64,000 nt of DNA from an uncultured Pseudomonadota bacterium (GTDB lineage Bacteria > Desulfobacterota > Syntrophorhabdia > Syntrophorhabdales > CAYQXL01): contig CAZYVU010000007.1 of NCBI GenBank assembly GCA_964651435.1, forward strand, positions 9,143 through 73,142, in the 5' to 3' direction. Shown here piece by piece: positions 35,256 through 58,493 of the stretch (position 1 is the stretch's first letter; every line of letters starts with the position of its first letter). Under the pieces are notes generated by a model. That model had not been told where the DNA came from and ran no database searches. It worked only from the letters and a program-made list of their open reading frames with translations. Both the position numbers and the translations under genes were made by a program.

Positions 35256-35293
35256 TCGTGTTACATATGAAAATCGTGATACATATCATTGAC
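35256..35293. promoter_or_regulatory. tandem operator-like repeats overlapping the pilA -35
   Basis: TCGTGTTACATATGA (35256-35270) and TCGTGATACATATCA (35274-35288) with an 18-nt period. The second contains the inverted repeat TGATA-CA-TATCA and recurs upstream of pilM (53080-53094). Confidence 0.5.
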
Positions 35294-35317
35294 GCCACGG
35301 CAAAGGCAGTCTATAAA
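35289..35317 (+). promoter_or_regulatory. candidate sigma70 promoter for pilA
   Basis: TTGACG (35289-35294), 17-nt spacer, TATAAA (35312-35317). AAAGGAGG RBS before the ATG at 35359. Confidence 0.55.
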
Positions 35318-35358
35318 TAGAATGTGAATTACTATTCTACCTACTAAAGGAGGTTCAC

Positions 35359-35787
35359 ATGAAGATCAAAAGAAATACCAAAGGTTTCACCCTCATCGAG
35401 TTGCTCATCGTTGTGGCGATCATCGGCATTCTGGCGGCAATAGCCATCCCCAACTACATGAGCTATACGAAGAGAGCCAAGATGGGCGAGGTGGTACATG
35501 CAATGGGTGCGATTAAGAACGCGGTTGTGGTTTACTACTCGGAAAATCCTACTTTACCAACGGCTGGGAGCGCAGATTTGATTAAGAGCCACTATGGCGT
35601 GGACCTCCCCACCACTAAGGCTAGTTATGGGTTCGATCCAAGCACTCGAATAATTACGGCAAGCACTCTTTTGCCCGATAGTTCTGGGACTGCTACCCTA
35701 AGTGGAAATTTGACGTTGACCGCGGATGAACAGTATAAGAACTGGACTTGGGGAGGTACTGTCGAATCAACCTATAAACCGAAATAG
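35359..35787 (+). CDS. pilA: type IV major pilin
   Basis: 142-aa ORF with a class III signal MKIKRNTKG|[24 protein letters not shown] (G-1, F+1, E+5), followed by its own terminator and pilD. Confidence 0.85.
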
Positions 35788-35803
35788 CACCAGCGTATTG
35801 AAT

Positions 35804-35830
35804 GGGGGGCGAAAGCCCCCCTCTTTTTCT
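35804..35830 (+). terminator. rho-independent terminator/attenuator after pilA
   Basis: GGGGGGC-GAAA-GCCCCCC hairpin followed by TCTTTTTCT. Confidence 0.8.
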
Positions 35831-35868
35831 CTTGATAGGAGTCGCATGGGTGCGGTCTAATAAGTATT

Positions 35869-36636
35869 ATGGAGATAGTAATCGTGGCCGTCTTTGGCGC
35901 CATCATAGGAAGCTTTCTCAACGTATGCATCTACCGCCTTCCCCGGGACCTGTCGATCGTGCGGCCCGGTTCCTCATGCCCCCACTGCAATAGCTCCATA
36001 AGGTTTTTCGACAACATACCCATTCTGAGCTATGCTATTCTCTGGGGTAAATGCCGAAAATGCAAGGCTCCCATCAGCCCCCGATATGCTATCGTCGAGG
36101 CCTTGGCGGCAGCGCTTTTCGTCTTCCTATATCTCACCATTGGCCTCGCTGTCGAACTACCTATCCTCATGCTGTTCGTAGCCCTGCTCATCGTCATTTC
36201 CTTCATAGACCTTGAGTTTCAGATCATTCCCGATGTTTTGAGCATTGGAGGAGTGATTGTCGGGTTCTTGCTTTCCTTTCTTAGGCCCACATTCACCTTC
36301 CTTGATTCGTTGTACGGCATTTTCCTGGGCGGCGGCCTCCTCTATGCCATTGCCTGGGGATACCAGTTTATTACAAAGCGTGAGGGTATGGGGGGAGGAG
36401 ACATTAAGCTCCTGGGTATGATCGGCGCCTTCTGCGGCGTCAAAGGGGTGCTCTTCAGCCTCTTTGCCGGTTCCCTCATCGGAGCCATCGTCGGCATTCC
36501 GCTCATGCTCTTTCAAAGAAAAGGGCTAACCTACGCAGTACCTTTCGGGCCATTCCTCTCTGGTGCAGCCTTAATATATGTCTTTGCCGGGCAACGGATC
36601 GTTCAGATTTTTGTCGCATTCTTGATGGGGCAGTAG
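35869..36636 (+). CDS. pilD: prepilin peptidase / N-methyltransferase (A24 family)
   Basis: 255-aa ORF with the Cys motif CPHC...CRKC and conserved Asp blocks (ISFIDLEFQIIPD, GGGDIKLL). Confidence 0.9.
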   Translation: MEIVIVAVFGAIIGSFLNVCIYRLPRDLSIVRPGSSCPHCNSSIRFFDNIPILSYAILWGKCRKCKAPISPRYAIVEALAAALFVFLYLTIGLAVELPILMLFVALLIVISFIDLEFQIIPDVLSIGGVIVGFLLSFLRPTFTFLDSLYGIFLGGGLLYAIAWGYQFITKREGMGGGDIKLLGMIGAFCGVKGVLFSLFAGSLIGAIVGIPLMLFQRKGLTYAVPFGPFLSGAALIYVFAGQRIVQIFVAFLMGQ

Positions 36637-36638
36637 CC

Positions 36639-37136
36639 ATGCTTCGCTTTGCCAACGTGGCACCGGGGTTTTCTCTCATCGAGGTCATGCTCGTGGTCAT
36701 ACTCCTCGCCATCCTCTCCGTGGGCGGGGTAGCCATGCTGAAACCGATGCTGGCGGATCAAAAGCTTATCAAGTATGGCACACAGATGGAGTACATGGTT
36801 AAGTATGCCAGGCTTCACGCCATGGAGAAGACCGTTAAGGTAGGCATTTGTATCGCCGGTAACCAGCTCACGCTGTATGACCTTGGTACGAACCGCGACT
36901 CGACGGTATGCGGAACATCGGGGCAAAGAATCATGTCTATGGCCGTTGAATCGGATGATCTTTCCTCGGGCATCACACTCATCGGTTCAAGCGTCTCCGT
37001 TGACCCCAGAGGCCTTGCGCTGTACCCGGGCACGGGCGGCAACGCCTGCGTCACAAACGGCAGAAAATACTACAAGACAACGGTCGGCGTGGCAGGTGTG
37101 CGGACGAAGCAGGGGACCGGGACATGTCCTTCATGA
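36639..37136 (+). CDS. GspH/FimT-family minor pilin
   Basis: 165-aa ORF with prepilin signal ...APG|FSLIEVMLVV and a downstream pattern like FimT/GspH. Confidence 0.7.
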   Translation: MLRFANVAPGFSLIEVMLVVILLAILSVGGVAMLKPMLADQKLIKYGTQMEYMVKYARLHAMEKTVKVGICIAGNQLTLYDLGTNRDSTVCGTSGQRIMSMAVESDDLSSGITLIGSSVSVDPRGLALYPGTGGNACVTNGRKYYKTTVGVAGVRTKQGTGTCPS

Positions 37137-37516
37137 AAAATGTCATTCATAAAGCGTATCATGGTTCAGGGGGTTTCACCCTCATTGAAACCCTGATCGG
37201 CCTCGCCCTGCTCGGCATTGCGCTTATGGGCATGGTCGCCATGATGGGAAATTTCGTAGCCCAGACGAGCGACAGCTTTTTGCGCTCCTGCGTCCTCGAT
37301 TCAGCCGTTAATGCGATACTTCAATACAAATCGAACGCCATGCCCGTGCCTACGACGTTTAATTGCACTACCTCGAAGGGACTCTCCTATGCCGGCACAG
37401 TTGTCATGAACTTCAGTACCTATCCGCCCCAAGATGAGTGCTACGACTTCACCGCAACGGCTACGGCAGGGGGCAAATCCGTTCTCCTCAGAGAGAAGAT
37501 ATGCAATTTCAGATGA
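37124..37516 (+). CDS. pilV: PilV-like minor pilin
   Basis: 130-aa ORF with signal ...GSGG|FTLIETLIGLALLGIALMGM, typical of PilV. Confidence 0.65.
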   Translation: MSFMKNVIHKAYHGSGGFTLIETLIGLALLGIALMGMVAMMGNFVAQTSDSFLRSCVLDSAVNAILQYKSNAMPVPTTFNCTTSKGLSYAGTVVMNFSTYPPQDECYDFTATATAGGKSVLLREKICNFR

Positions 37517-38508
37517 AGATGCCAAAGCTGGATGCCAAGGGGCATACCCTTATCGAGCTTCTGATTGTGGTAGGCATAGCCATGTTTGTGCTGCAGGCCG
37601 TCTATTTCCTGCAAAGCGGATTCCTAAGCCTCTTCAAAGATGTGAAAACCAGGTCCGAGAACATCCAGACAAAGATCCCTTCCATGGAGCTTGTGTCGCG
37701 TTACTTCGACCGTTGGGGCGTCAACGTCATCGGAAACGGGATTGCAGGAGGATCAAACTGCAGCTCGTACCCCCCGTCTCACGCCCGGTGCATCACTGCT
37801 ACCACGGGAACCCAGTGCGATGAAGTCACCTTCTGGGGGAACCTCTACGGGTTTGGGTTCGTCAACTCGGCCACCTCGGGCACAGCTTCGCTCGCCAGTT
37901 GCAGGCTCAGCAGTTCAGACAGCCATAACCGGTACTATATCTGGAGCAGCGATACGCTTTACAACGACGTCCTCCGAGATGGAAACGGCAACATCATCTA
38001 TGTCATTCCACTGCGACTGAGTTCATTGAGTGCCGACAGCGCGGATTGCACAGGCCTTACAGCCGGCAGTCCGGCCAATGCGACCACAGGCTATTCGCTG
38101 ACGCCCCCCACATGGGTGCAGACTTTTTGTCCGCTCCTGTTCGGTGTCACCTGCAGCGAGACAACTAAGTATCTTCAGGCGGGCGATGTGATTCAAAGGG
38201 CACCTCACCGTGTCCGCTTGTACTGTGCCCAAAATTCCACGGACAACAACCAGCTCTGGCTTTACGTCCGCTTGGTCGACACGGCGGACAACGTCGATGA
38301 AGGGGCCGTTGCCATCGCCCCCGTCATGTACGAAACACGAGAGAGCGGCAATATAAAAGGTCTGGAGGTCCAATTACTTCCTTCGGGCTGCGACGCCACG
38401 GTGGGAGGCTGCCTGGGCGCCCGCGTCTGGGTCAATTTTCGCAGCCAAGCCCAGACAACAGCCCACCAATTCGCGACCCAGCGGGTGGAGCGGGTCTATT
38501 CGAGGTGA
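37501..38508 (+). CDS. pilW: PilW-like minor pilin
   Basis: The ORF track starts at 37438. The ATG at 37501 gives MQFQMKMPKLDAKG|[17 protein letters not shown]. About 335 aa, with PilW-like size and position. Confidence 0.6.
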   Translation: MQFQMKMPKLDAKGHTLIELLIVVGIAMFVLQAVYFLQSGFLSLFKDVKTRSENIQTKIPSMELVSRYFDRWGVNVIGNGIAGGSNCSSYPPSHARCITATTGTQCDEVTFWGNLYGFGFVNSATSGTASLASCRLSSSDSHNRYYIWSSDTLYNDVLRDGNGNIIYVIPLRLSSLSADSADCTGLTAGSPANATTGYSLTPPTWVQTFCPLLFGVTCSETTKYLQAGDVIQRAPHRVRLYCAQNSTDNNQLWLYVRLVDTADNVDEGAVAIAPVMYETRESGNIKGLEVQLLPSGCDATVGGCLGARVWVNFRSQAQTTAHQFATQRVERVYSR

Positions 38509-38509: not shown

Positions 38510-40411
38510 ATGATGAGCGACAACAGAGGTATGGCACTCGTGATCGTCCTTGCCGTCAATTTTCTCATCTTTTTTCTTGGCCTGGCAGCCTTCAAAATGA
38601 CGGAACTGGGGTACCTCACCTACGGGAGCGAGCGCCGGTTTCAAGTAGCCGGCGAGGCGTCAGAATTTGCCCTAAACACGGGCGTCAAGTACGCCCTTGA
38701 TAATGGCGCTTGTCCTGCCTCCGGGAACTGCACCGGCACGATGACATCTGCGGGAGGAACGGCGAACTATACCTGTTTCTCCGTTGCGGCCGGGAACAAG
38801 TGCTTCATCCATGCCACTGGAAGCTTTCGAGGATCGAGAGTTGTAAAAACCGTGGTTGTTCCTTACGGCGGGGCGACGGAGTACGGAGCCATAACGGTAC
38901 GTAACGGGGGCGTCTTCCAGATGGGAGGGTCCTCCTCCATCGCAAACTGCCAGTCCGATTGCCCCACGCCAGGTGTTTCCTATGGGGGCAGCATGACCCT
39001 GCAACTGCAAGGGGGCCTTTATAACACGACCGACTGCCCAAACAACCCAAAGGGCATCTATGGTGCCCCATACGCCGTAGCCGACGGAACCGGCAATCAG
39101 GCACCCTGCGCAAACCCAAGGAATTGCTCCTTTTCCGCCCCCGTTCTGCCGGACCTTATACCTTCGACCTTTGTGGTAGGAAGCGGGTGCAGATCTGCCG
39201 GCACCTGTTGGGCAGACCTGAAGACCGCTTTGGCCGGTACGTACGGCGGCGTTTCCGTAACGCCCTCCAGTCTTGTGGTGGCAGGCATGCCCGAAAGGCC
39301 AGCAACAACTCCGAACCCTACCTGCTTTTGCACCGACTCCAGCTTCACCCTCACCTCCGGCTCAAACTCATGCACGGGCGTGGCGGATTTCTCAACCTGC
39401 GACGGCGGCATCAAGTTCAACGGAACCATGACGATACAGGGAATACCTGTCGGCATCTCAACCTTGGTATCAACCGGAACCATGACAGTTACAGGCGTCC
39501 CTTCGGGCAGCGGTAATTTTTCGGGGAAGAACCTTTATGCCTTAGGCGCCTCGAGCATTACAGTCAATGACAGCGACGTATCGTTTGCCAACGCGCAGGT
39601 TGTTTCAGGGGGCTCGGTGACGCTGCAATATGTTGCGGATATATCTAGCACGACCATAACCTCAGGAACAAACCAAAGCGTAACGCTTCAGTCCACGGGA
39701 ACAATAAGCGACAGCACCATTATATCCGGAGGCGGCATCACTATGCAGTCGAGCACGTCCGGTATAAATAACTCTAAGCTGCTGGCAGAGGGCTCCTCAG
39801 GAGTAACAGTGCAGAGCGGCAATGGCATAGACAACACGGTTATTGTCACCGCAGCCGCGGGCGCCGACATCACCCTCCAGGGTGGGACCATCACGGGCTC
39901 CACTCTTGTAACCAAGGATGCACTTACGATACAGTCCAGCAACGGCACCGTGACGGATTCAAACCTTTTTTCGGACTCCATAGTCATCCAGAAGGGCGCG
40001 GGCAACATCGGCGGGGGTATGCTGTACTCCAACTCGGGGGCCACAATCCAGGGAACGGGTGGTGGTACACAGCAAGTAGGGTTGACGACGAACCCGACCC
40101 TTCTCCTTACCGGAGGCAATCTGACGATCCAGCATACTAACGGCACGACCGACTTTAACGGTATGGTTTTCACCAACGGGAGAATCGTCTATCAGTCAAA
40201 CGGGGACTACGGTATACGAGGGAAACTCGTAGCAAACAGCGGCACAGCGGGAAGTGTCTTTCAGGGCGGCGGCAATGCCCATATCAACTACGACCACGGC
40301 GTGCTACAACTGCTGGCCACACGTCTTGCCACGCTCGTTCGTGCACCAACCTGCGGCGGGGGGGGCAACATGAAGCCCTATGTATCCATGACAAAGATGA
40401 CGGTATATTGA
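38510..40411 (+). CDS. PilX-N-terminal-domain protein fused to a long Gly/Thr/Ser-rich repeat (predicted beta-helix) region
   Basis: 633-aa ORF with N-terminus RGMALVIVLAVNFLIFFLGLAAF (PilX_N-like, no E+5). The C-terminal half holds about 10 repeats of about 20 aa centred on [ILV]T[LIVM]Q. Confidence 0.6.
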   Translation: MMSDNRGMALVIVLAVNFLIFFLGLAAFKMTELGYLTYGSERRFQVAGEASEFALNTGVKYALDNGACPASGNCTGTMTSAGGTANYTCFSVAAGNKCFIHATGSFRGSRVVKTVVVPYGGATEYGAITVRNGGVFQMGGSSSIANCQSDCPTPGVSYGGSMTLQLQGGLYNTTDCPNNPKGIYGAPYAVADGTGNQAPCANPRNCSFSAPVLPDLIPSTFVVGSGCRSAGTCWADLKTALAGTYGGVSVTPSSLVVAGMPERPATTPNPTCFCTDSSFTLTSGSNSCTGVADFSTCDGGIKFNGTMTIQGIPVGISTLVSTGTMTVTGVPSGSGNFSGKNLYALGASSITVNDSDVSFANAQVVSGGSVTLQYVADISSTTITSGTNQSVTLQSTGTISDSTIISGGGITMQSSTSGINNSKLLAEGSSGVTVQSGNGIDNTVIVTAAAGADITLQGGTITGSTLVTKDALTIQSSNGTVTDSNLFSDSIVIQKGAGNIGGGMLYSNSGATIQGTGGGTQQVGLTTNPTLLLTGGNLTIQHTNGTTDFNGMVFTNGRIVYQSNGDYGIRGKLVANSGTAGSVFQGGGNAHINYDHGVLQLLATRLATLVRAPTCGGGGNMKPYVSMTKMTVY

Positions 40412-40472: not shown

Positions 40473-42536
40473 TTGCAAAAGACCATAAACATTCTGGGCG
40501 CCTGTGCGCTCTTCCTGCTTCCTTTTGTCGGCGGAAATCACCTTCCCCTCCACTTCTTTACGGTCGATCGGTTTTGGATCGAGACGTCCTTTGCCTTTGT
40601 GCTCGCGTCCTGTTCCGTCGCCGTATTTCTGCTGGCGGATACCCGCATGAATCGGCTTCTGCCATTTTTCGTTCTTGCAGGCCCATACATTTTGATCAAT
40701 CTCCTGAGCCTTGCCTACTCATGGGATCTCTTCGCCACCATTAAGTCTATAAACGTCTTGCTTCTGGCCCTCGCCATGGCATGCGTTGCGAGCTTCATGG
40801 ACAGAGGCCTCGTCATACGATCCCTCGTTGTCGGGGGACTCGTGCTCGCAGCATGTGCAATAGTCCAGCACTGTGCGCTTTTTCCCTCTCTTCGAACCAT
40901 CTTCACCTCAGGCCAATACGCCGCATTGCTCGGCGAGCAGTCATCGATACCCTTCGGCTCCTACCTCTATCACAACATAATGGGTGGCTATCTCGCTTTC
41001 CTTTTCCCTCTCTCGATTTTCCTGGCAGCATCAGAGAAACCCTTTGCCTGGGCCCCCATATCGGCAACGATCATAATAGGAGTGGTTCTCTCGTCATCCC
41101 GTATCGCTCTGACCCTCGTCGTGATCATTGTCGGCATCTGTGGGGTAGCGTTTTTCATTAAACGTAAATTCCAGCAGGCACTTATCGTTTTCGTTGTCTG
41201 TGCACTTGCTGCAGGCGGCACCTTTCTTCTCCTGAAACTCCCCGGCACTCCCGAGGCTACCACGGTGCAGAAGGTGCTTGAAGAGAAGGTCAAAACGGCC
41301 GGAAGCCAACTGTCGACCATGAATACGAGAACAGATATTTGGAAGAATGGGTTGGAGGCCTTCAGGCACCACCCCATCGTCGGGGTGGGGGCAGGAAGCT
41401 TCGAGTTTGCCTACAGAAAGTATTTTTACGGTAACTCCTATACGAGGGTCGCCCACTCCACGCTGCTCAAGACGGCCGTCGAACTGGGAGTCATAGGCTT
41501 ATTGTGCCTCATCATTTACCTGGTGGAAGCTCTTCTGCATCTTAGGGGCACCAAATGGGGCTTCGGCGATTTTGCCCTGATCGCCGCCTGCGGATGCGGG
41601 TTCGCCTTTGGGCTTGTCGATTTCTCCTTCGACGTTCCCTCCCACGTAATTACGTTCTTTGCGCTAAGCTCCATGCTCTTTGTGGACAGGCGAGCTCCGC
41701 TCCGGTCAGTTACGCAAACAGACGGTGCCGCACGCCATGCGTTGTTCTTGAGCCGTCACAAGCTGGTAGCCCTGGCCATGATGGTGGCCCTATTGCTGTC
41801 CCTGACATTTACTTTCAGGGCAGCCCTTGCCGACAAGGCCTTGGAAAACGGCGGGCACCTTGAAGACCTCGGCCTGACGGCCGATGCGGTCAAGTCATAC
41901 GAGGACGCCGACCATCTCATGCCCTGGAATGCGGAAGGTGCCCTGAGGGCGACAGCGGCCTTAACAGGCGCATATCTTTCCGGGGGTGGAAAAGAGGCCG
42001 GGAATGTGATAGGAGAGAAACTAACCATGTCCCTGGATGGAATAAACGCGAAGAGAACGAGGAATTCAGAGGCCTTCTTGATCTCGGCGAGAGGGTACGT
42101 TGCACTCGGGAAGACCGGCGAGGCCGACAACGCCTTTCGGGCAGCCCTGAGCCTCTATCCAACCTCCGCCTATTATGTGTCCGAATTCCTCGATTTCTCC
42201 ATTAGCACCAATCAACTCGACCAGGCGGAACGGCTCGTCCGGACCTTTGCCCCGCTGAAGCCAAAGTATGTAGGTCCCTACAACACGCGAGGTCTCTATG
42301 TGTACCGAATTCAGGACCTGGAGGCTACGCTTGCATACAAACAGGGGGACCGGCGGAAGGCCGTGGACATAGCCAAAGCAAACCTGGAGGATGCAAGAGA
42401 AGGCAAGTATGTCATAACCAGTGCGCGGTCACGGCAGTTTGTGCGGAGAGACGACATCCTTAGATATCTCGAGCAAAGGCACCGCCAGTTCCAGAATGCG
42501 AAATTACACGAAAAGGTTCCAAATGTTATGCGATAA
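40473..42536 (+). CDS. Wzy_C / O-antigen-ligase-family membrane protein with a C-terminal TPR-like domain
   Basis: 687-aa ORF, polytopic, with the periplasmic-loop signature SSSRIAL... and AHSTLLKTAVELGVIGLL (compare the AHN.YL..L.E.GiiG block of WaaL/PglL/PilO). The last ~230 aa are helical-repeat-like. TTG start. Confidence 0.75.
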   Translation: MQKTINILGACALFLLPFVGGNHLPLHFFTVDRFWIETSFAFVLASCSVAVFLLADTRMNRLLPFFVLAGPYILINLLSLAYSWDLFATIKSINVLLLALAMACVASFMDRGLVIRSLVVGGLVLAACAIVQHCALFPSLRTIFTSGQYAALLGEQSSIPFGSYLYHNIMGGYLAFLFPLSIFLAASEKPFAWAPISATIIIGVVLSSSRIALTLVVIIVGICGVAFFIKRKFQQALIVFVVCALAAGGTFLLLKLPGTPEATTVQKVLEEKVKTAGSQLSTMNTRTDIWKNGLEAFRHHPIVGVGAGSFEFAYRKYFYGNSYTRVAHSTLLKTAVELGVIGLLCLIIYLVEALLHLRGTKWGFGDFALIAACGCGFAFGLVDFSFDVPSHVITFFALSSMLFVDRRAPLRSVTQTDGAARHALFLSRHKLVALAMMVALLLSLTFTFRAALADKALENGGHLEDLGLTADAVKSYEDADHLMPWNAEGALRATAALTGAYLSGGGKEAGNVIGEKLTMSLDGINAKRTRNSEAFLISARGYVALGKTGEADNAFRAALSLYPTSAYYVSEFLDFSISTNQLDQAERLVRTFAPLKPKYVGPYNTRGLYVYRIQDLEATLAYKQGDRRKAVDIAKANLEDAREGKYVITSARSRQFVRRDDILRYLEQRHRQFQNAKLHEKVPNVMR

Positions 42537-42686
42537 TTTAAGGCTATGCTTGAAAGAATGGATTCAGCAGTATATCGGAGAGTGGCTTGTTTCGCGCACC
42601 AGAGGTTTGCGGACATCGCGGACAACATCTTCAACCTGCGATCTACATCGTCCGCATCGACAGCGAAGAGCGGGTGCGTTCTCCTG

Positions 42687-43493
42687 ATGAGCAGCGGCCA
42701 TAGGAATTTCTCTCTGAGGTCATCAGTCCGCAGCATAAGAAGAATAATACAACTCACAAACTATGACTTTAGATCCAAATATCTCGGTTCGCACTTAGGT
42801 CTATTTTGGTCCTTTTTGCAGCCACTTCTAACGCTGGCAGTTCTTTGTTTCGTTCTTCAAGTCGGTTTTAAAACGGGAAGCGTGGGGAATTACCCATTTA
42901 TCATGTGGCTAATGGCTGGAATTATTCCTTGGTTCTTTATATCCGAAGGTCTTTCAAATTCTTCTGGTGCCATTGTTGAAAATAGTTTTCTTATCAAGAA
43001 AGTGGTATTTGACGTCCATCTTCTGCCGATAATAAAGATTATTTCCGCTCTATATGTACACGCGTTCTTTATTGTTCTTTTATTGCTTGTTTTTCTCTTT
43101 CAAGGGAATTCTCCTTGCCGTTATTGGTTGCAGCTCATCTATTATTTGAGCTCCTCGATTGTCCTGGTAATGGGAATATCCCTTCTCACTTCAGCCGCCG
43201 TAGCCTTTGTTTCTGATTTGAAGCCTGTCATCGCAATGTTTTTGCAGTTGGGTTTCTGGTTAACCCCCATCTTTTGGTCCCATCATGCGGTGGCAAAGAA
43301 TTATCGGTATTTGATAAAGCTCAATCCTTTCTTCTATATAGTTACTGGGTACAGGGACAGCATGATTGACCATGTTTGGCTATGGGAGCGCCCCTTGCTT
43401 ACAATCTACTTCTGGATTTTCACGGTTCTGGTTTTGATAACTGGTATTCTTGCTTTTCGTCGGCTGCAATCTCAATTTGCTGACGTGGTTTAG
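42687..43493 (+). CDS. wzm: ABC-2-type polysaccharide export permease
   Basis: The ORF track starts at 42546. The ATG at 42687 gives a typical ~268-aa Wzm/TagG protein (YDFRSKYLGSHLGLFWSFLQPLL, 6 TM). Confidence 0.8.
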   Translation: MSSGHRNFSLRSSVRSIRRIIQLTNYDFRSKYLGSHLGLFWSFLQPLLTLAVLCFVLQVGFKTGSVGNYPFIMWLMAGIIPWFFISEGLSNSSGAIVENSFLIKKVVFDVHLLPIIKIISALYVHAFFIVLLLLVFLFQGNSPCRYWLQLIYYLSSSIVLVMGISLLTSAAVAFVSDLKPVIAMFLQLGFWLTPIFWSHHAVAKNYRYLIKLNPFFYIVTGYRDSMIDHVWLWERPLLTIYFWIFTVLVLITGILAFRRLQSQFADVV

Positions 43494-49766: not shown

Positions 49767-49845
49767 CTCTCAAGCTCCAACCTTTATCTATGGCACCACG
49801 ACATTCTCGACTCTTCAAGAACGATGGCAATTCGATGGGGCAGAT

Positions 49846-50847: not shown

Positions 50848-51712
50848 CGTCATCATACCCACTCTCAATGCGGGGCCTTCCTTTTCTGAGCTTCTCGACT
50901 GCCTACAAAGACAGACCGTTCGCTGCGAGATCATTGTCGTTGACTCCTCCTCCTCCGACGGAACTCCGGATGTGGCAAGGAGCAACGGGTGCAGGGTGGA
51001 GAGCATCCTCAGGCAGCAGTTTCACCATGCCCGGACAAGAAACCTTGGCGCGCGGCTTGCCAAAGGTGATATCCTTGTTTTTATGACGCAGGACTGTATG
51101 CCCGTCCATGACGACTGCGTGGCAAAACTGATAGCCCCCCTGGTCCGGAGTGAAATAGCGGCATCATACGGAAGGCAGCTCCCAAGGAGCGGGGCAAAGC
51201 CTACCGAACGCTTCGCCAGGGCCTTTAACTATCCCCCCGAAAGCGCCGTGAAGGGTAGGGCCGAAGCCATTAGACTCGGCATCAAGGCCTTCTTTTTCAG
51301 CAATGTCTGTTCCTCCGTGAGGAGAGAGGCATTCGGGCAGGTCGGGGGGTTCCCGGAAGACCTCACCATGTTTGAGGACATGCGGCTCGCCAAAAGGCTT
51401 GTTGATGCCGGCTATAAGATCGCCTATGTTCCCGAGGCTAAGGTTATCCATTCCCATGACCTTGGTCTACGGGATCAACTTGCTCGCTATTACCAGGCAG
51501 GCTTTTCATTGTCCGCAGTCCCGGGGCTTCTCGCCGCAAGCAGGGCCAATGACGAAGCCCGGAGATTTATAAAGGAAGAGCTTTTGTTCCTTGCCCGCAA
51601 TGGTTACGTCAGGTGGATTCCGTACGCCCTTGCCGAAGCAGCCTGCAAGTTTACGGGTTTTCGATTGGGGGCACTGACGTTCACTGCAAGAAGGTTCAGA
51701 CAGCATGATTGA
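50840..51712 (+). CDS. GT2-family glycosyltransferase
   Basis: MVSVIIPTLNAG...IIVVDSSSSDGT and FEDMRLAKR. 8-nt overlaps with both neighbours. Confidence 0.8.
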   Translation: MVSVIIPTLNAGPSFSELLDCLQRQTVRCEIIVVDSSSSDGTPDVARSNGCRVESILRQQFHHARTRNLGARLAKGDILVFMTQDCMPVHDDCVAKLIAPLVRSEIAASYGRQLPRSGAKPTERFARAFNYPPESAVKGRAEAIRLGIKAFFFSNVCSSVRREAFGQVGGFPEDLTMFEDMRLAKRLVDAGYKIAYVPEAKVIHSHDLGLRDQLARYYQAGFSLSAVPGLLAASRANDEARRFIKEELLFLARNGYVRWIPYALAEAACKFTGFRLGALTFTARRFRQHD

Positions 51713-53069
51713 GGCAGACAGCAAGATCAACCGGACCATCGTCCCTACGCTTCTTATCGTAGATGCTGCAGCCATAATGCTGTGTCTCATTGCGGCATTT
51801 TATTCAAGAGTTTGGCTCGGCTCCGTTCTCGCCCTCGTGCCCCTCGGCCACGATCTCGACACCTACCTCTCAAAATGGTGGATCTGGGTGGTCATCATAC
51901 TCGCAGTCGCTTACAAGGGCGGCTACGGAAGCCTTGTAAGCTTCTGGGACGAGGCCGTCACCTTTACAAAAGGCCTGGCCTTTTCCTTCCTGGTAGTGTG
52001 GCTTGTTCTCTCACTGCAAAAGGAGTCTGAAACGGTATCCCGCATCGTGGTGACGCTCTCTTTTATTTTCATGGTTCTCGTGATGCCTGCAGAAAGGCTT
52101 ATGCTCAAGTTCCTCCTCTTCCGGTGCTTGGGATTGCGGAACAGGGCATACCTGTACGAAAGGAGAAAGGGGCCGAGGAAGGATGACCTAAGGGACACCC
52201 TCAACCGGGAATGGTACTCGGGCTACTACATCGTCGGCAACATCGACATGGACTCCCTCGCCGTGCCGGCAGAAGCCTGCTTCATCCCCATTGAATGCGC
52301 CGACGAGGCGACAATACGGGCCCTGAAACCGAAGGTTCGGACCCTGATCATCGTCTCCGCCCTTTCCGGGCTTGCTTTCATGAACACAGACATCAAGACC
52401 TTTCTGGGCAAAAATATCACTCTCATCACCACAAGCAACGGCCTCCTCTCCCTGCAGAACGTGCTCCTAAAGAGAGCCTTCGACATCGCTTCGGCCGGTG
52501 TTCTGCTCCTCCTCTTGAGCCCCCTTCTCGTTGCGCTTCCCGTCCTGATCCGGATACATTCGTGTGGCCCGGCAATCTTCAGGCACAAGAGATGCGGCTA
52601 CCGGCTTGAAGAGTTCGATATGCTGAAGTATCGCACTATGCGTATAGACGGGGACCAGGTATTGAGCACCTATCTCAAGGAGCATCCGGAAGCCTTAAAG
52701 TCGCTGCAAGAGAGAAACAAGATCAAGGGCGATCCTCGCGTGACCGGGCTCGGCAGGCTTCTCAGGCGCCTTTCCCTCGATGAGCTGCCGCAGCTTTACA
52801 ACGTGCTGGTCGGCGATATGTCACTCGTTGGACCGAGACCGGACAGCAAGGATGCCTTAAAAGACTATATCGATGACTACAGCCAGATCTACGCCTCACT
52901 CAGGCCCGGGGTCACGGGACTCTGGCAGGTAAGCGGCAGAAGCGAGATCGGCTACCGCGAACGGGTACAGCTGGACCACCTGTATATGCTCAACTGGTCC
53001 CTATGGCTGGACTTGGTCATCATGCTCAAGACATTTCGGGCTATACTGGGGCAGAAAGGGGCCTACTAA
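51705..53069 (+). CDS. polyprenyl-phosphate sugar-1-phosphate transferase (WbaP/exopolysaccharide priming type)
   Basis: 454-aa ORF with N-terminal TM helices and a C-terminal catalytic domain (KRAFDI, FRHKRCG, MLKYRTM, DELPQLYNVLVGDMSLVGPRP). Confidence 0.85.
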   Translation: MIEADSKINRTIVPTLLIVDAAAIMLCLIAAFYSRVWLGSVLALVPLGHDLDTYLSKWWIWVVIILAVAYKGGYGSLVSFWDEAVTFTKGLAFSFLVVWLVLSLQKESETVSRIVVTLSFIFMVLVMPAERLMLKFLLFRCLGLRNRAYLYERRKGPRKDDLRDTLNREWYSGYYIVGNIDMDSLAVPAEACFIPIECADEATIRALKPKVRTLIIVSALSGLAFMNTDIKTFLGKNITLITTSNGLLSLQNVLLKRAFDIASAGVLLLLLSPLLVALPVLIRIHSCGPAIFRHKRCGYRLEEFDMLKYRTMRIDGDQVLSTYLKEHPEALKSLQERNKIKGDPRVTGLGRLLRRLSLDELPQLYNVLVGDMSLVGPRPDSKDALKDYIDDYSQIYASLRPGVTGLWQVSGRSEIGYRERVQLDHLYMLNWSLWLDLVIMLKTFRAILGQKGAY

Positions 53070-53123
53070 CATATAGTTTTCGTGATATATATCATTGACA
53101 GAATGCTCGTACTCTGTTAATTA
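53068..53123 (+). promoter_or_regulatory. pilM upstream element: operator-like palindrome plus a candidate promoter
   Basis: TCGTGATATATATCA (53080-53094) contains the perfect 12-bp palindrome TGATATATATCA and abuts TTGACA (53095-53100). The -10 is weak (GTTAAT/TAATTA at 16-17 nt). About 26/34 nt are identical to the pilA upstream element. Confidence 0.45.
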
Positions 53124-53174: not shown

Positions 53175-54227
53175 GTGGGCCTGATACAAAGATTAGGTTT
53201 TAGTCGAACGACAGAATTGATAGGCATCGACATCGGCACCTCCTCCATTAAGGCGTGCCTCCTTAAGCCAGGACGGGATGGCATCAGGATGGCCGCCGTC
53301 GGCCGACGGACTTACAGCCAGGAGATTCTGAATGAAGGATATATCCTGGATGGGGCCTTCGTTGCGCAGGAGATAAGGGAGATTCTCACCGACAAGGGTA
53401 TTAAGGCCAAGGCGGCTGCCTCTGCCCTATCGAGCTACGCCGTCATTGCCAAGGAAGTTACCTTGCCCTTCCTGGAGCCCGGGGAGCTCGACCAGAATAT
53501 CAGCTATGAGGTGGAGAACGCCATCCCCTTTCCCCTAAAGGACGTCTACTACAGCTACTGCGTTCTCGGCGCCGAAGAAGGGCGGGAAGATCGGCTCAGC
53601 GTGCAGATCGCCGCAGCCAAAAAGGAGATTGTCGACGGGTTTGTGGATACCTTTCGGGCAGCAGGACTGACCCTTCAGATCCTTGACGTAGACATCTTTG
53701 GCATTACCAATCTTGTGGAGCAGATCTATGAGCCGAAAGACTCCTCGGCTCTGGTCGTCGACATCGGTGCGGCAACGACCAACATGGCAATCATCCGTGG
53801 CGAAAGCGTTCAGTTCACGCGGGAGATTCTTTTGGGCGGGCGAAGGCTCACGACGCTGATTGAAAGGTCGCTCCGTGTCCCATTCGAGGAAGCCGAACAG
53901 AGAAAGATCGCCGGCGATGCCGCGGCCGCCCACCTCTTCGATGACTTCATCTACAACGTGTCCTCGGAAATCAACAAGACGATAAACTTCTACGTTTCCA
54001 TAAAACCGAAGGAGGCCATCTCGGCCATTTATCTGACGGGAGGCGCTTCCTTGCTGAAGGGCTTAAAGGAACAGATCGAAAAAGACACGAAGATCACCGT
54101 CGAGTACCTTGACCCCCTGAAGCTTCTTGCTGCCGACTCTGAGGCCGGATCAACCTATGGCGAGTACAGAAACTTCCTTTCCGTGGCACTCTACCTGTCG
54201 AGCCGCGTTAGTGACATAGCCTCATGA
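53175..54227 (+). CDS. pilM: type IV pilus assembly protein PilM
   Basis: 350-aa actin-like ATPase-fold ORF (IGIDIGTSSIKA), with a GTG start after GGGGAGGGG, followed by pilNOPQ. Confidence 0.9.
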   Translation: MGLIQRLGFSRTTELIGIDIGTSSIKACLLKPGRDGIRMAAVGRRTYSQEILNEGYILDGAFVAQEIREILTDKGIKAKAAASALSSYAVIAKEVTLPFLEPGELDQNISYEVENAIPFPLKDVYYSYCVLGAEEGREDRLSVQIAAAKKEIVDGFVDTFRAAGLTLQILDVDIFGITNLVEQIYEPKDSSALVVDIGAATTNMAIIRGESVQFTREILLGGRRLTTLIERSLRVPFEEAEQRKIAGDAAAAHLFDDFIYNVSSEINKTINFYVSIKPKEAISAIYLTGGASLLKGLKEQIEKDTKITVEYLDPLKLLAADSEAGSTYGEYRNFLSVALYLSSRVSDIAS

Positions 54228-54760
54228 TCAAAGTCAACCTTCTCCCAGCCACGTCTGCAAAGAGGCATTTCAAGGGCTGGGGATGGATTCTGTTTTGCGT
54301 GGTCATTGCGGCTAATCTATCCGTTCTTGGATTCCTTTATTTCACCAACAGCAAGGAGATCTTAAGCAAGGAGCGGGCAATAGCGTCGACAAAGAAGGAG
54401 ATAGAGAAGCTCCAAAAGACGCGAAAGGAACACCAGCTTCTCACCGCAGACAGAAAGGAGCTTGAAAGAAGGCTCGAAACGATCAAGAAGCTAAAAGAGG
54501 GTAGGGCGCTGTCGGCCAGAATGATCTTCGATCTATCGGTGCTTACGAAAGACAATGTGTGGATTAAATCCTTCCGGCGAAACGAAGCGCAGTTTGAGCT
54601 GGAAGGCCGCTCTGCAGAGAACGATTCCATCTCCGATTTTGTCGAGGCTATGTCAAAAATCCCTTACGTCAAAACGGTCGAGTTGCGTCGCATAGAGGAT
54701 GTAGCAGAGGAGGGCGTGACGGTAAAGAAATTCTCCCTACAGGGCACGGTGGGGCTATGA
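54224..54760 (+). CDS. pilN: type IV pilus assembly protein PilN
   Basis: 178-aa ORF starting MIKVNLLP, with a single TM helix and a coiled coil. 4-nt overlaps with both neighbours. Confidence 0.85.
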   Translation: MIKVNLLPATSAKRHFKGWGWILFCVVIAANLSVLGFLYFTNSKEILSKERAIASTKKEIEKLQKTRKEHQLLTADRKELERRLETIKKLKEGRALSARMIFDLSVLTKDNVWIKSFRRNEAQFELEGRSAENDSISDFVEAMSKIPYVKTVELRRIEDVAEEGVTVKKFSLQGTVGL

Positions 54761-55356
54761 CGTTAGGTGTCGACACCGGGCCCATTAAGGATTTTCTGGA
54801 ACGATTCCGGCTGATCATTATGATTGGCGTCAATGTGGCAATCTTCGCCATCGTTTTTCTTATGGTCATTATGCCCCAGTACGAGACCAAAAGGAAGCTG
54901 GAGCTTCAATACAAAGAGGTCGCCAAAGACCATGAGATGCTCGTGGGCCTCCACAAGGGAATGGCACAGTTCAAGAAAGAGTATGCCGCCATTAAGGAGT
55001 CCTTCGAAAAGGCCCTTGCAGAGCTGCCGGACAGGAAAGATATCCCTGACATTGTTCGAACCATGGCACAGCTTGGAGGGGAAACGCGGGTAAAGGTCCG
55101 ATTCTTTGAACCGAAAGCAGTAACCAACAGAGATTTCTACGGCGAACTTCCCATAGAAATGCGCTACGTTGGTTCGTACCAGAATTTGGGATTTTTTTTC
55201 GACGAGCTGCGAAGAATGCAGCGAATCGTCCAGGTCCCCGTCTTCTCCCTGGAGGCAAAGGGGCCACCAGGGCAGATTTTTCTGGAAGGATCCTGCATGG
55301 CCAGGACATATCTCTTTATTCGTCCCCCAAAAGACCCGAAAGGGGGAAAAGGGTAG
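54757..55356 (+). CDS. pilO: type IV pilus assembly protein PilO
   Basis: 199-aa bitopic ORF with a coiled coil and ferredoxin-like C-terminus, in the PilO position. Confidence 0.8.
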   Translation: MTLGVDTGPIKDFLERFRLIIMIGVNVAIFAIVFLMVIMPQYETKRKLELQYKEVAKDHEMLVGLHKGMAQFKKEYAAIKESFEKALAELPDRKDIPDIVRTMAQLGGETRVKVRFFEPKAVTNRDFYGELPIEMRYVGSYQNLGFFFDELRRMQRIVQVPVFSLEAKGPPGQIFLEGSCMARTYLFIRPPKDPKGGKG

Positions 55357-55363
55357 CGTGGCT

Positions 55364-55840
55364 ATGGGCGGCAGGCGGCACATATTGACAGCATTAACTT
55401 TGCTTGCGGCTATGCTGCCGTTCATGGGCGGCGTGGTCCTTGCTCAAGCGCCCAAGAATGCGCCAGCCCCATCTGCCGAGCAAAAATACGAGTTGGGTGA
55501 ATTTTCGTTCTCCTCGAAACATTTACGCGATCCCTTCGAGCCCGTTTTTCTCCTCAAGGCCCGCAAATTGAGGGTCGGATACCAGGTTCCCACAGATAAG
55601 GCGAAAGGCCTACGGGAGGGATACGAGCTCGAAGAGCTGCGACTTGTTGGAATCATTCAGAAAGAGAATGCACGCTACGCCATGATGGAGGACCTTCAGG
55701 GAAAGGGCATGCTCTTCAAGAAGGGAGACATGATCAACCCACGGTTATGGATTGTGGATGTCGTCGAAAATAAGGTCGTAATGGGCTACCGGACGAAGAA
55801 GGCAACGAAGACGTTCGAAGTGGAGATTCAAAAGAAATGA
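55364..55840 (+). CDS. pilP: type IV pilus assembly protein PilP
   Basis: The ORF-track start (55169) lies inside pilO. The ATG at 55364 (or GTG at 55358) gives a signal sequence MGGRRHILTALTLLAAML and a ~158-aa protein with a PilP-like beta domain (LRLVGIIQKENARYAMMED). Confidence 0.7.
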   Translation: MGGRRHILTALTLLAAMLPFMGGVVLAQAPKNAPAPSAEQKYELGEFSFSSKHLRDPFEPVFLLKARKLRVGYQVPTDKAKGLREGYELEELRLVGIIQKENARYAMMEDLQGKGMLFKKGDMINPRLWIVDVVENKVVMGYRTKKATKTFEVEIQKK

Positions 55841-57201
55841 GGGACGGAGCCATGAAAAGGAGACTGTTGTGCGTTACTTTGGCTGTTTTGCTCTTTTTGC
55901 CGCTTATCGCTTACGGCGAATACGGCAAGAAAGGAGGGCCCCGCATTTCGTTTGATTTCGTCGATGCGGACCTCAAGAATGTGCTGAAGGTGCTGGCCGA
56001 GGTATCGTCCAAGAATATTGTCGTATCCGAGGACGTTAAGGGCAAAGTGACTATGCGGATCGACAATATTACGTGGGAGGAGGCCTTTGAAGTTATACTG
56101 AAGAATCACGATCTCGGAAAAATCGAGGATGAGAATATTCTGCGCGTGGTGACGTTAAAAAAGTACTTCGACGAGCGGGAACGGGACCGCAAAGAGAGGC
56201 TGGAACTGCTCAGGGAAAAAGAGGTGAAGCAGAAGCTCGAAGAGGATTTTGTGACGGAAACAGTCTTCATCAATTACGTTGACGCAGGAGAGATCGAGAA
56301 GATCGTTCGAGGACAGGCCGCCACTCCTTCCGGCCCCGGGGCGCCCGCCACCGGATCGGCAAGTAAGGGCCTCCTGACCCCCTTCGGGGCCGTAACGCTC
56401 GTCAAATGGACCAACTCATTGATTCTTAAAGATGTTAAGGAGAACGTCGAGCAGATCAAGCTGAGAATCCGTGAGCACGACGTGCCGCCGGCGCAGGTAC
56501 AGATAGAGGCCAGAATAGTGGAGGCAAACAGTGACTTTTCCCGTGAGTTGGGCATCCAATGGGGCGCAACCTACCACAAGAGCAACAACCTGATCGGCGG
56601 CACCGTGTCGGCACCCACCCTGGGCTTCCCGGCCGCAGGGACCTTGAGTGTTCTCATCGGCGCGCCGACAGACTCCTTTCAACTAAGCGCCAAGCTGTCG
56701 GCCATGGAAAGTGAGGGTCGCGGCAAGATCATCGCCAATCCCAAGGTCGTCACTTCGGACAATCAGCCTGCCAAGATCAGTCAGGGTACACAGATTCCGT
56801 ATCAAACGGTCTCCCTTAACGGCACCCAGACACAATTCATCGACGCCGTTTTGAGCCTTGAGGTAATCCCTCACGTGACGAAGGACGGGAATGTAAACAT
56901 GAAGATTAAGGCCACCAAAGACAGGCCTACCCAGATTCTCGGCTCACCGATTCCCGGCGTGGATAAGAAGGAGGCCACAACCATCGTCCTCGTGAAGGAT
57001 GGCGAAACAGCGGTCATAGGCGGAATCTACGAATCCGAGAGAGAGGACAGAGAGGAGGGCATTCCCCTGCTGAACAGAATTCCGCTGCTTAACTGGATTT
57101 TCGGGTATACAAAGAAACAGATGATTAAAAAGGAACTGCTCATCTTCGTTACCCCCAGCATCATCAAGAACAAGTATGTTGAGGTGGGGGTGAAAGAATG
57201 A
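55837..57201 (+). CDS. pilQ: type IV pilus secretin PilQ (short form, no AMIN domains evident)
   Basis: 454-aa ORF with a signal peptide, an N0-like block ISFDFVDADLKNVLKVLAEV, and the secretin domain ending GIPLLNRIPLLNWIFG...ELLIFVTP. Confidence 0.9.
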   Translation: MRDGAMKRRLLCVTLAVLLFLPLIAYGEYGKKGGPRISFDFVDADLKNVLKVLAEVSSKNIVVSEDVKGKVTMRIDNITWEEAFEVILKNHDLGKIEDENILRVVTLKKYFDERERDRKERLELLREKEVKQKLEEDFVTETVFINYVDAGEIEKIVRGQAATPSGPGAPATGSASKGLLTPFGAVTLVKWTNSLILKDVKENVEQIKLRIREHDVPPAQVQIEARIVEANSDFSRELGIQWGATYHKSNNLIGGTVSAPTLGFPAAGTLSVLIGAPTDSFQLSAKLSAMESEGRGKIIANPKVVTSDNQPAKISQGTQIPYQTVSLNGTQTQFIDAVLSLEVIPHVTKDGNVNMKIKATKDRPTQILGSPIPGVDKKEATTIVLVKDGETAVIGGIYESEREDREEGIPLLNRIPLLNWIFGYTKKQMIKKELLIFVTPSIIKNKYVEVGVKE

Positions 57202-58493
57202 AGATGACGACGGTAGTGATGGGGCTTGTCCTGTGCCTTACGATCGCTGCAGCCACCCCCTCGCACGGTATAATTGGACGCATCGCCGCCACCGTTCATG
57301 GCAGGATCAACGTTGCCTCCGGCGATAGGGCAGTGGTCACCCTGGGAAACAACGCCGGCATCATAAAAGGAGATATCCTTAAGGTTGTCACCAATATGGA
57401 TCAGGGCATCTCGAACCCTTTGGGTTCCTGTCCTGTCATTGAGGTGAGAGAGAATTCGAGTATTTGCGAAATAATGAACGCTCGAACAGAGATAGACAGG
57501 GGCTGCCGCGTGGTGGCTAAAGACCTGCAAGCGGGGGACCCCCGTCTTTTTCCGTACCTCTTCAGGATGATGGCCGATTCCGTTGAGCCCTACGCGCCCT
57601 ATGCGCCCGTTCGCATGCATATACACACCATCTACGATTCCATGAATAACGTGACGGCACTGTCCCAACGGCTCACCGATGAGATATACAAGCTTTTCAG
57701 CCAAAAGCAGAGAATTACGATAAAGAGTGTTTATAGAGAGGGCGATCTCCGCCTCTATCCCAAAAGACTGAAGGACAACTATCAGACGGCAAAGTACTTC
57801 ATGGAGAAGACCGACACAGACATCGTTCTTACCGGCCTCTACAGCATCCAGGGCGATACAGCGCTCGTAACCCTTTACGCCATTGACAGGACCTATGGAG
57901 AACGACAGAGTTCCTTCTCCGTAAAACTCGACGGCCTCTCTGAAATGGCGGAAGCAACAACGATAGTCACCCCCTATGATCCTGCGGAGGTAGATGAATA
58001 CGTCCCATGCAGAATTGAGTTCGTCGAAAAACCTTACGTCCCCCACAAAGACGAGAAGAAACAGATAATCGCATATGAGGCGGGCGACAACGCATTTAAG
58101 GCCCACGAACTAAAGCGTACGGCTTTCACCACCATGAGTCCTGTAAATATTTCCGTTCACCTCGACAAGGAAAAGGTTGACTTCGGGTCCAGAAACGATA
58201 CGGTGCTCCTCATTCAGAAGGGCCTCCACCGCCTGTCTGCATCCTTCAGGCGCGGATATTTTATGAACGCAAAGGAGAGCCTCCTCTTTACATCAGATAA
58301 GGAGGTGACCCGGGATGCGCTTTTGCATATATCCAAGGGGGGAGTTGTAGTTGTTCGCATCGCCCTCAGCCCCGCCATCCAACAGTCGGGCATCGAAATC
58401 AGCGTATTCAGAGAAGCGGATCACGAGAAAACGGTCCTTAAGCCTATTACTACCGTGGAAGCGGGCCGCGTAGTCGATTATTACAAGGATTGA
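57198..58493 (+). CDS. secreted protein of unknown function, translationally coupled to pilQ
   Basis: 431-aa ORF whose ATG overlaps the pilQ stop (ATGA). It has the signal peptide MKMTTVVMGLVLCLTIAAATPSHG. I recognise no family with confidence. Confidence 0.6.
   Translation: MKMTTVVMGLVLCLTIAAATPSHGIIGRIAATVHGRINVASGDRAVVTLGNNAGIIKGDILKVVTNMDQGISNPLGSCPVIEVRENSSICEIMNARTEIDRGCRVVAKDLQAGDPRLFPYLFRMMADSVEPYAPYAPVRMHIHTIYDSMNNVTALSQRLTDEIYKLFSQKQRITIKSVYREGDLRLYPKRLKDNYQTAKYFMEKTDTDIVLTGLYSIQGDTALVTLYAIDRTYGERQSSFSVKLDGLSEMAEATTIVTPYDPAEVDEYVPCRIEFVEKPYVPHKDEKKQIIAYEAGDNAFKAHELKRTAFTTMSPVNISVHLDKEKVDFGSRNDTVLLIQKGLHRLSASFRRGYFMNAKESLLFTSDKEVTRDALLHISKGGVVVVRIALSPAIQQSGIEISVFREADHEKTVLKPITTVEAGRVVDYYKD

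Follow-up and report, generated by a model that had tools for sequence, protein, structure and literature searches.

Among the described enzymes close to the system considered here are the pilin O-oligosaccharyltransferases (O-OTases) TfpO (PilO), TfpM, PglL and PglS, Wzy_C-superfamily proteins with conserved catalytic Arg and His residues that are encoded beside pilins and move glycans from undecaprenyl diphosphate (Und-PP) to pilin. They are 420-620 aa long (420-470 aa for TfpO and TfpM), as a rule transfer one repeat unit of O-antigen or capsule, and have no ATP-binding cassette (ABC) transporter cassette of the Wzm/Wzt type of their own. PglL and PglS carry extra C-terminal periplasmic regions, and for the larger one of PglS a role in recognising sequons inside proteins has been suggested; adjacency to a pilin gene predicted O-OTases in 21 of 31 PglL homologues (PMC3643930). 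A different arrangement is found in the S-layer slg clusters of Geobacillus stearothermophilus NRS 2004/3a and Paenibacillus alvei, where a WbaP-type primer (WsaP/WsfP) is unusually paired with Wzm/Wzt, the glycan consists of an adaptor, a repeat chain and a terminal methyl cap (WsaE) predicted to be bound by Wzt, and a Wzy_C O-OTase (WsaB/WsfB) carries out the final transfer to protein, with a tetratricopeptide repeat (TPR) domain either fused to it (WsfB) or encoded next door (WsaA) (PMC2943079). Here we analyse a 64,000-nucleotide stretch from an uncultured bacterium of the Syntrophorhabdales (the window: forward-strand positions 9,143 to 73,142 of contig CAZYVU010000007.1, assembly GCA_964651435.1), in which a gene for a Wzy_C protein with a C-terminal TPR domain (Wzy_C-TPR) and a Wzm/Wzt glycan cassette lie inside a type IVa pilus (pil) locus. 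We tentatively propose, as a possibility falling only slightly short of probable, that this protein is a pilus-dedicated O-OTase fed by an ABC-transporter pathway, in effect the S-layer slg scheme installed on the pilus.

By description, the slg clusters resemble the window locus in combining a primer, Wzm/Wzt and Wzy_C(+TPR) in closely packed low-GC genes. They belong to Gram-positive bacteria, and their acceptor is an S-layer protein encoded nearby, whereas the host of the window is diderm and its cluster sits among pilus genes. A preliminary description of this DNA had listed 22 genes between 35359 and 58493, all on the + strand; their coordinates match the map of open reading frames (ORFs), and their identities match our domain scans, made with Pfam and NCBIfam for the window ORFs and additionally with PHROGs for the unassigned ones. 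The block opens with pilA, coding for a major type IVa pilin of 142 aa (35359-35787; N_methyl and Pilin), and continues with pilD for the prepilin peptidase (35869-36636; A24_N_bact and Peptidase_A24), three minor-pilin genes (36639-37136, 37124-37516 and 37438-38508; N_methyl motif matches) and an ORF of 633 aa (38510-40411). The Wzy_C-TPR gene (40473-42536) is followed by genes for the permease Wzm (42546-43493; ABC2_membrane), the ATPase Wzt (43494-44699; ABC_tran and Wzt_C, TagH- and galactan-Wzt-like), a B12-radical SAM enzyme (44752-46203; B12-binding and Radical_SAM), a methyltransferase (46204-47151; Methyltransf_24), a family 4 glycosyltransferase (GT4; 47108-48484), three family 2 glycosyltransferases (GT2a, GT2b and GT2c; 48372-51712), both families assigned by family scan, and a WbaP-like polyprenyl-phosphate hexose-1-phosphate transferase, the putative primer (51705-53069; Bac_transf of the WbaP/EPS_sugtrans kind). 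Then come pilM, pilN, pilO, pilP and pilQ for the alignment subcomplex and the secretin (53175-57201; PilM_2, PilN, PilO, PilP and Secretin) and an ORF of 431 aa (57198-58493) that overlaps the pilQ stop and is translationally coupled to it. The earlier inventory of the genes between the two pil blocks thus stands, and so do the tight or overlapping gene junctions it listed, which we rechecked on the sequence; the true starts of Wzm, GT2a, PilP and the third minor pilin are probably downstream of the longest-ORF starts used here. The class III signal of the major pilin, together with PilD, PilMNOP and the PilQ secretin, identifies the system as a type IVa pilus, with PilB, PilC and PilT outside the window. 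Likewise, Wzm and Wzt are present, and neither Polysacc_synt/Wzx nor another Wzy-like protein was detected in the scanned window ORFs, as befits an ABC-transporter-dependent pathway; the same scans found no Wzy polymerase, nucleotide-sugar or PilB/C/T domains, as had been claimed.

The Wzy_C-TPR protein of 687 aa matches Wzy_C (PF04932) with E=4e-22 and a score of 79.1 bits against a gathering cut-off of 31.7, followed by a weak TPR match. A profile of its family matches the WaaL of Cupriavidus metallidurans (PDB 7TPG; E=3e-6) over positions 209-356 and many TPR proteins over 453-640. From hydropathy and the positive-inside rule we predict 12 transmembrane (TM) helices and then, after a cytoplasmic linker rich in Arg and Lys, a 13th TM helix (430-448); the TPR domain would accordingly be periplasmic, like the predicted 255-335 loop. 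An AlphaFold2 model built from 28 family members (pLDDT 81, pTM 0.82) comprises a helical membrane core (2-400), a poorly ordered linker, a long helix (419-465) and a TPR superhelix (469-681); a Foldseek comparison of the full-length model with the PDB returned mostly generic TPR proteins (Tom70, OGT and CTPR designs) and was uninformative for the membrane core. Within the 255-335 loop R286 and H328 are invariant in the 28 sequences, of which at least 90% also conserve R210; judged by spacing and position rather than by direct alignment, these residues would correspond to R215/R288/H338 of E. coli WaaL and R224/R298/H349 of PglL. Mean pairwise identity is 41% in the TPR domain against 49% in the core.

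These features set the protein apart from the described pilin glycosylation enzymes. Members of its family are 660-710 aa long owing to the 13th TM helix and a TPR domain of about 220 residues, and an ABC-transporter cassette accompanies the gene in the window. It does not conform to the TfpO/TfpM type, being 687 aa long and separated from pilA by five genes; the two are directly adjacent only in one related locus (L008). TfpW of Pseudomonas aeruginosa group IV offers a closer parallel in outline, as it is a pilA-adjacent multi-pass transferase with a periplasmic C-terminal TPR region that is needed for pilin glycosylation. However, the TfpW core has been modelled on ArnT and Emb-like (GT-C) enzymes and builds D-arabinofuranose oligomers, whereas the core of the window protein is of the Wzy_C/WaaL type, not PMT/ArnT, and presumably transfers a preassembled Und-PP-linked glycan; the feature shared by the two is confined to the periplasmic C-terminal TPR domain, predicted in the present case.

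The resemblance to WaaL calls for an alternative explanation, in which the Wzy_C-TPR protein is simply the lipopolysaccharide (LPS) O-antigen ligase of its lineage, the cassette is the corresponding O-antigen cluster, the gene order with pil is inherited but functionally unlinked, and the TPR domain serves other contacts, for example with Wzm/Wzt or Lpt proteins. The alignment of the core with 7TPG, the shared Wzy_C domain and predicted 12-TM architecture, and the presence of WaaL-like Arg/Arg/His residues facing the periplasm are all in keeping with it. Nevertheless, the solved WaaL, a chain of 413 aa, matches the core alone (profile positions 209-356), lacks anything equivalent to the 13th TM helix or the TPR domain, and has no known linkage to pil genes. 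We know of no characterised WaaL enzyme with a large extra periplasmic domain, the lipid A-core being an acceptor that resides in the membrane. We regard this explanation as unlikely, though it is the main alternative.

Comparison of gene neighborhoods bears most directly on the question. The Wzy_C-TPR family is sharply bounded: about 68 clusters align over the full length at 32-43% identity, after which the E-value jumps from ~1e-173 to ~1e-15. Its named members come from Syntrophorhabdus and from metagenome-assembled genomes labelled Syntrophus or Deltaproteobacteria. Scanning a single genome for each species yielded 25 loci, including that of the cultured Syntrophorhabdus aromaticivorans UI, and with three contexts retrieved by protein identity the set came to 26 distinct loci (28-43% protein identity), onto which we mapped all window proteins together with the minor-pilin set of locus L001. 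In at least 23 of the 26, the gene lies 3' of pilA-pilD-(minor pilins) and/or 5' of pilMNOPQ. Twenty have pilA and/or pilD with the minor-pilin set directly upstream, and one (L008) has pilA immediately upstream; in another (L011) the contig is cut upstream, with the usual Big_9 neighbor on that side and pilM downstream. Three (L020, L021 and L025) have unrelated genes upstream and the usual Wzm-Wzt-GT module downstream; pilMNOPQ follows the module in L025, whose subclade retains only the pilM-side linkage, and the contigs of L020 and L021 end before that point. The remaining one (L013) was assigned to none of these groups. S. aromaticivorans UI (L009) has the same architecture as the window.

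As for L008, where pilA stands directly ahead of the Wzy_C-TPR gene in a TfpO-like manner, no pilD or minor-pilin homologue was detected between the two; about 2 kb further upstream a second protein, of 710 aa, combines a hydrophobic N-terminus with C-terminal TPR repeats (5126-7258 and 9080-12040 in that locus). Split tblastn matches in MFD assemblies (L026-L028) were considered as possible pseudogenes and rejected, as the adjacent genes pilD, pilQ and BacTr are broken up there as well, which we attribute to assembly indels. A metagenome scan with a four-sequence alignment recovered only the contig of the query itself.

The linkage persists even where the glycan genes do not. One relative (L023) has the order pilA, pilD, minor pilins, Wzy_C-TPR, pilMNOPQ, an ORF of no known family and rluB, and another (L027) the minimal order pilA, pilD, Wzy_C-TPR, pilMNOPQ, the same kind of ORF and rluB. 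Neither has any glycan gene between the Wzy_C-TPR gene and pilM, and a third (L003) has only remnants there. Hence, the Wzy_C-TPR gene is a core resident of the pil locus and the glycan genes are accessory to it, and in relatives without local glycan genes the glycan must come from elsewhere. For the same reason the characterization of the locus as a dedicated glycosylation system was too strong. The linkage also withstands exchange of the minor-pilin set (the PilY1 type versus the three minor pilins of the window, mp1-3, with the 633-aa protein) as well as replacement, inversion and loss of the cassette; it is both strict and long-lived. With regard to the O-antigen ligase alternative, a linkage that outlasts cassette loss, minor-pilin exchange and relocation of the pilA block exceeds what is usual for neutral synteny.

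This linkage does not extend to the fold at large. An exhaustive search delineated a wide Wzy_C+TPR superfamily across phyla, with 3464 representatives at E <= 1e-10, and six outgroup contexts from it had no pilin, PilD or PilMNOPQ neighbors. In the nearest outgroup clade (P0110, P0116 and P0222) the gene is always followed by those for a hexapeptide acyltransferase, a DegT aminotransferase and an Rrf2 regulator; P0072 and P0074 have unrelated or capsule-like surroundings, and P0225 has a lone PilT-like ATPase nearby and nothing else of pil character. As these six distant Wzy_C+TPR proteins are encoded outside pil loci, the association is a property of the family in Syntrophorhabdaceae rather than of the domain architecture. 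The conserved module of the nearest outgroup clade occupies 6594-11018 in L031, 8215-12732 in L032 and 10001-14377 in L033.

The base composition of the window might at first suggest that the whole 12.6-kb block between the pil genes is a fortuitous recent insertion of a polysaccharide cluster without any lasting association, since GC falls from ~0.55 to ~0.46 over 42.5-49.7 kb. However, only the stretch from Wzm to GT2a (42546-49766) looks foreign (GC 0.43-0.49, with Wzm/Wzt at 0.43-0.47, and GC3 0.48-0.57), not the whole 12.6 kb; the genes for Wzy_C-TPR, GT2b, GT2c and the primer have host-like values (GC 0.53-0.56, GC3 0.61-0.72) comparable to those of the non-cassette genes (0.53-0.57), and they have orthologues in the same positions in many relatives, just the middle having been exchanged. 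Linkage to pil in at least 23 of 26 loci, retained where the glycan genes are absent, degenerate or replaced, is likewise not what an ordinary O-antigen insertion would leave behind. The synteny survey thus effectively rules out such an insertion, to which we give almost no weight. This also qualifies the preliminary account of a pil locus split by a 12.6-kb module: the gene order is real, and the Wzy_C-TPR gene, probably with the primer and two GT2 genes, is a long-standing resident.

Pairwise comparisons capture the exchange at the DNA level. Between L014 and either L018 or L016, identity is ~78% over pilA-pilD and the Wzy_C-TPR gene; homology breaks off ~160 nt short of where the Wzy_C-TPR match ends and resumes, if at all, only at the far end of the module. 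We conclude that Wzm-GT2a constitutes a mobile, replaceable cassette within an otherwise resident locus. Its contents vary among relatives, with short Wzt versions lacking the C-terminal domain, B12-radical SAM genes and other methyltransferases, and Wzm/Wzt are inverted in several of them; GT4 and GT2a find their best matches in S. aromaticivorans UI (51% and 47%) and are missing from most other relatives. In contrast, many relatives have orthologues of GT2b, GT2c and the primer (44-59% identity) on the pilM side of the module. A conserved reducing end with a variable distal part is what one would expect if the transferase recognises nothing beyond Und-PP and the first sugars, and the GC profile of the window agrees with it. 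At the same time, O-antigen loci too have conserved ends, a variable middle of low GC and sharply defined recombination breakpoints, as the LPS ligase explanation would have it. The TPR domain, for its part, is unaltered across the cassette swap between L014 and L018; this constancy, with its conservation in the family, suggests that its partner is conserved and is not the variable glycan.

Wzt has a Wzt_C domain (E=1e-13), and the genes for the methyltransferase and the B12-radical SAM enzyme adjoin Wzm/Wzt; by analogy with E. coli O9a and S-layer glycans, the two are candidate glycan methylation or chain-capping enzymes. The recurrence of B12-radical SAM genes in the cassettes of four relatives (L002, L013, L017 and L024) points to unusual, possibly C-methylated, sugar chemistry. 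One of these, Syntrophorhabdus sp. PtaU1.Bin153, encodes a B12-binding radical SAM region and two GT2 domains in one 1053-aa gene (L002, 12432-15593).

The two pil blocks share a candidate promoter element. The preliminary description had placed the same element ahead of pilA and pilM, and we indeed find an exact 20-mer, TCGTGATAYATATCATTGAC, twice in the 64 kb against 0.01 occurrences expected: at 35274-35293, 66 nt 5' of pilA, and at 53080-53099, 76 nt 5' of pilM, both on the + strand. A variant, GTGAYANNNRTCATTKAC, lies 5' of pilA in most relatives, and in L003 a matching element (18501-18518) precedes the ORF immediately 5' of pilM. The element resembles a CRP/FNR-like site (CGTGATA-N3-TATCAT) fused to a -35 TTGAC in what could be a class II-like arrangement, and the form of this candidate seen 5' of pilA in most loci of the family is TGTGAYA-N3-ATCATTGAC with the TTGAC -35 hexamer; the putative CRP-type assignment draws on its resemblance to TGTGA-N6-TCACA, of which it has the half-site pair TGTGA-N6-TCA, and no CRP/FNR-type regulator to pair with it was found among the window ORFs. 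Behind pilA a potential intrinsic terminator or attenuator (35804-35831, +; GGGGGGC-GAAA-GCCCCCC with 7 G-C pairs, then a T-run) is the strongest terminator-like site across 35-54 kb. From these two features we predict that there are likely three transcription units: pilA alone, read-through into pilD, the Wzy_C-TPR gene and the cassette, and a pilM unit of its own that is controlled in the same way. With one promoter element shared by pilA and pilM, regulation too favors a pilus-dedicated function; a pil promoter element on both flanks of the gene is less readily accommodated if it encodes an LPS ligase. Just 5' of pilA lies a gene for a PAS-PAS-GGDEF diguanylate cyclase (33647-35146, -), which hints at a cyclic di-GMP link to pilus expression; in the three contexts of relatives examined, an oligopeptide-type ABC ATPase takes its place.

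The pilus proteins themselves offer clues as to the acceptor. PilA is Cys-less with a Ser/Thr-rich C-terminal half, and the ends of 16 aligned orthologues conserve W.W..G[ST]....Y[IM]PKN. This terminus excludes a site of the TfpO/TfpM style, in which the C-terminal Ser/Thr of the pilin is used, and an internal site is to be expected instead. Two cysteines are seen only in the PilA of L023 (5576-5995) and L027 (8044-8502), the aligned loci in which pilM directly follows the Wzy_C-TPR gene with no cassette; 13 orthologues have none and that of L014 has one, in what is a small sample. PilD is 52-68% identical to its orthologues in related loci. The four minor pilins of the preliminary description are reduced to three with a prepilin motif, the fourth, of 633 aa, having neither the motif nor a match in Pfam, NCBIfam or PHROGs. 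Its hydrophobic N-terminus suggests a PilX-like protein, its body is repetitive and Gly/Thr/Ser-rich, and its position makes it a probable tip or adhesin component; it has same-position orthologues in L015 (57%) and L024 (43%). These two relatives also have mp1-3 (39-51% identity); other relatives have a PilY1/PilW set in that place. The 431-aa protein likewise has no Pfam, NCBIfam or PHROGs match; it has an apparent signal peptide and orthologues of 30-32% identity after pilQ in L023 (16265-17545) and L027 (16347-17609), and may be an undescribed secretin-associated pilus component.

As the minor-pilin set changes or disappears while the Wzy_C-TPR gene stays, PilA or the assembly complex is the likeliest partner of the TPR domain. 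It is conceivable, albeit doubtful, that the glycan goes elsewhere: to periplasmic or surface proteins in general, to tip or adhesin proteins only, or to the anchor of a pilus-associated exopolysaccharide like Xap of Geobacter, the pil linkage then reflecting co-regulation of surface structures used in aggregation. PglL-type enzymes do glycosylate many non-pilin proteins, and a capped-polymer signature (Wzt_C with a methyltransferase) fits a glycan of the exopolysaccharide or S-layer type. By description, the xap genes of Geobacter sulfurreducens (xapD = GSU1501) include ABC exporter genes a few locus tags from pilA and specify a biofilm exopolysaccharide rather than a pilin glycan; an xapD mutant has no detectable PilA, which ties a pilA-adjacent exporter to pilus biology. 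Yet the change of the minor-pilin/adhesin set, and its absence from L027, argue against a tip-only acceptor, and the locus conserves neither an S-layer gene nor any other obvious acceptor gene. The Geobacter case also counts against the O-antigen interpretation, for Geobacter has a glycan cluster with an ABC exporter beside pilA and yet rough LPS.

Returning to the pilus-dedicated O-OTase, we infer the chemistry of every step, as well as the identity of the acceptor, in the following scheme. The WbaP-like transferase would prime undecaprenyl phosphate, and the two conserved GT2 enzymes would add a conserved reducing-end adaptor. Strain-specific GT2 and GT4 enzymes would then lengthen the chain, which the methyltransferase and/or the B12-radical SAM enzyme could modify or cap. 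The finished chain would be recognised by the C-terminal carbohydrate-binding domain of Wzt and exported via Wzm/Wzt. In the periplasm the Wzy_C protein would move the glycan en bloc, with the extra TM helix setting the TPR domain beside the catalytic loops. There the TPR domain could dock a pilus protein, most likely PilA before assembly, giving rise to an O-glycosylated pilus.

Several considerations weigh against this proposal. Wzy_C sequence alone does not separate WaaL from O-OTases, and the more specific PglL_A (PF15864) and Wzy_C_2 domains were absent at E <= 0.01 in the Pfam scan, which suits the LPS ligase alternative. The PilA orthologues end in ...PKN, ...PK or ...PKG, with no C-terminal Ser/Thr, unlike the substrates of TfpO/TfpM. 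Wzt_C and the candidate capping enzymes suggest a long polymer, characterised pilin OTases natively add mostly a single repeat unit, and a long chain on every subunit might, in our view, hinder passage through the secretin. WaaL genes often adjoin O-antigen genes too, and the Wzy_C-TPR gene, for all its linkage to pil, usually adjoins a polysaccharide cassette that could be an O-antigen cluster. Finally, all loci come from one bacterial family, as the inherited gene order of the LPS ligase alternative would entail, so part of the synteny may be inheritance.

As to novelty, the preliminary description knew of no precedent. An incomplete literature search indeed turned up no Wzy_C-TPR gene or Wzm/Wzt cassette inside a type IV pilus locus, nor any report of pilin glycosylation in Syntrophorhabdus or Desulfobacterota; the S-layer slg clusters, Geobacter xap and pilGHI of Myxococcus xanthus, by description a likely ABC transporter associated with the pil cluster, are nonetheless precedents of a kind, the last two from related phyla. 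No Wzy_C-TPR gene is reported with xap or pilGHI in the literature covered. The components of the window locus are each of a known kind, and their combination and the family are new. With still more reserve than for the pilus-dedicated function, we suggest that the family might represent an undescribed fifth class of O-OTases, natively coupling a capped, serotype-like variable, ABC-exported polymer to PilA in Syntrophorhabdaceae, whose pili would then wear a sheath of strain-specific glycan.

Elsewhere in the window, two tandem genes for PMT_2/ArnT-like GT-C glycosyltransferases (13127-14782 and 14779-16410, both -), one of them with an ArnT C-terminal domain, could serve to modify lipid A or mannosylate proteins and bear on other envelope decoration. 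A gene for myo-inositol-1-phosphate synthase adjoins one for a CDP-alcohol phosphatidyltransferase (20904-22646, +), suggesting synthesis of inositol-containing lipids, which to our knowledge is uncommon among bacteria. The RNA genes comprise RNase P RNA (16405-16865, -), signal recognition particle RNA (2916-3013, +), tRNA-Ser(GGA) (2658-2752, +) and tRNA-Met (17774-17846, -). A 370-aa ORF at 16742-17854 was set aside as probably spurious, since it overlaps the RNase P RNA and tRNA-Met and has no family match.

If the acceptor is indeed a pilin, the window would hold the first example of a pilus locus equipped with an ABC-transporter-dependent glycan pathway. The protein would then represent a new class of O-OTases, whose TPR domain could explain the choice of protein substrate, an open question in the OTase literature, and an enzyme natively handling Wzm/Wzt-made polymers would be of interest for bioconjugate vaccines. 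Even if the protein should prove to be an O-antigen ligase, a WaaL with a TPR domain, conserved in a pil locus, would be a peculiarity in need of explanation. Syntrophorhabdus breaks down aromatic compounds as an obligate partner of methanogens, and in digesters and sediments a strain-variable glycan on its pili would matter for partner recognition, aggregation and phage pressure.

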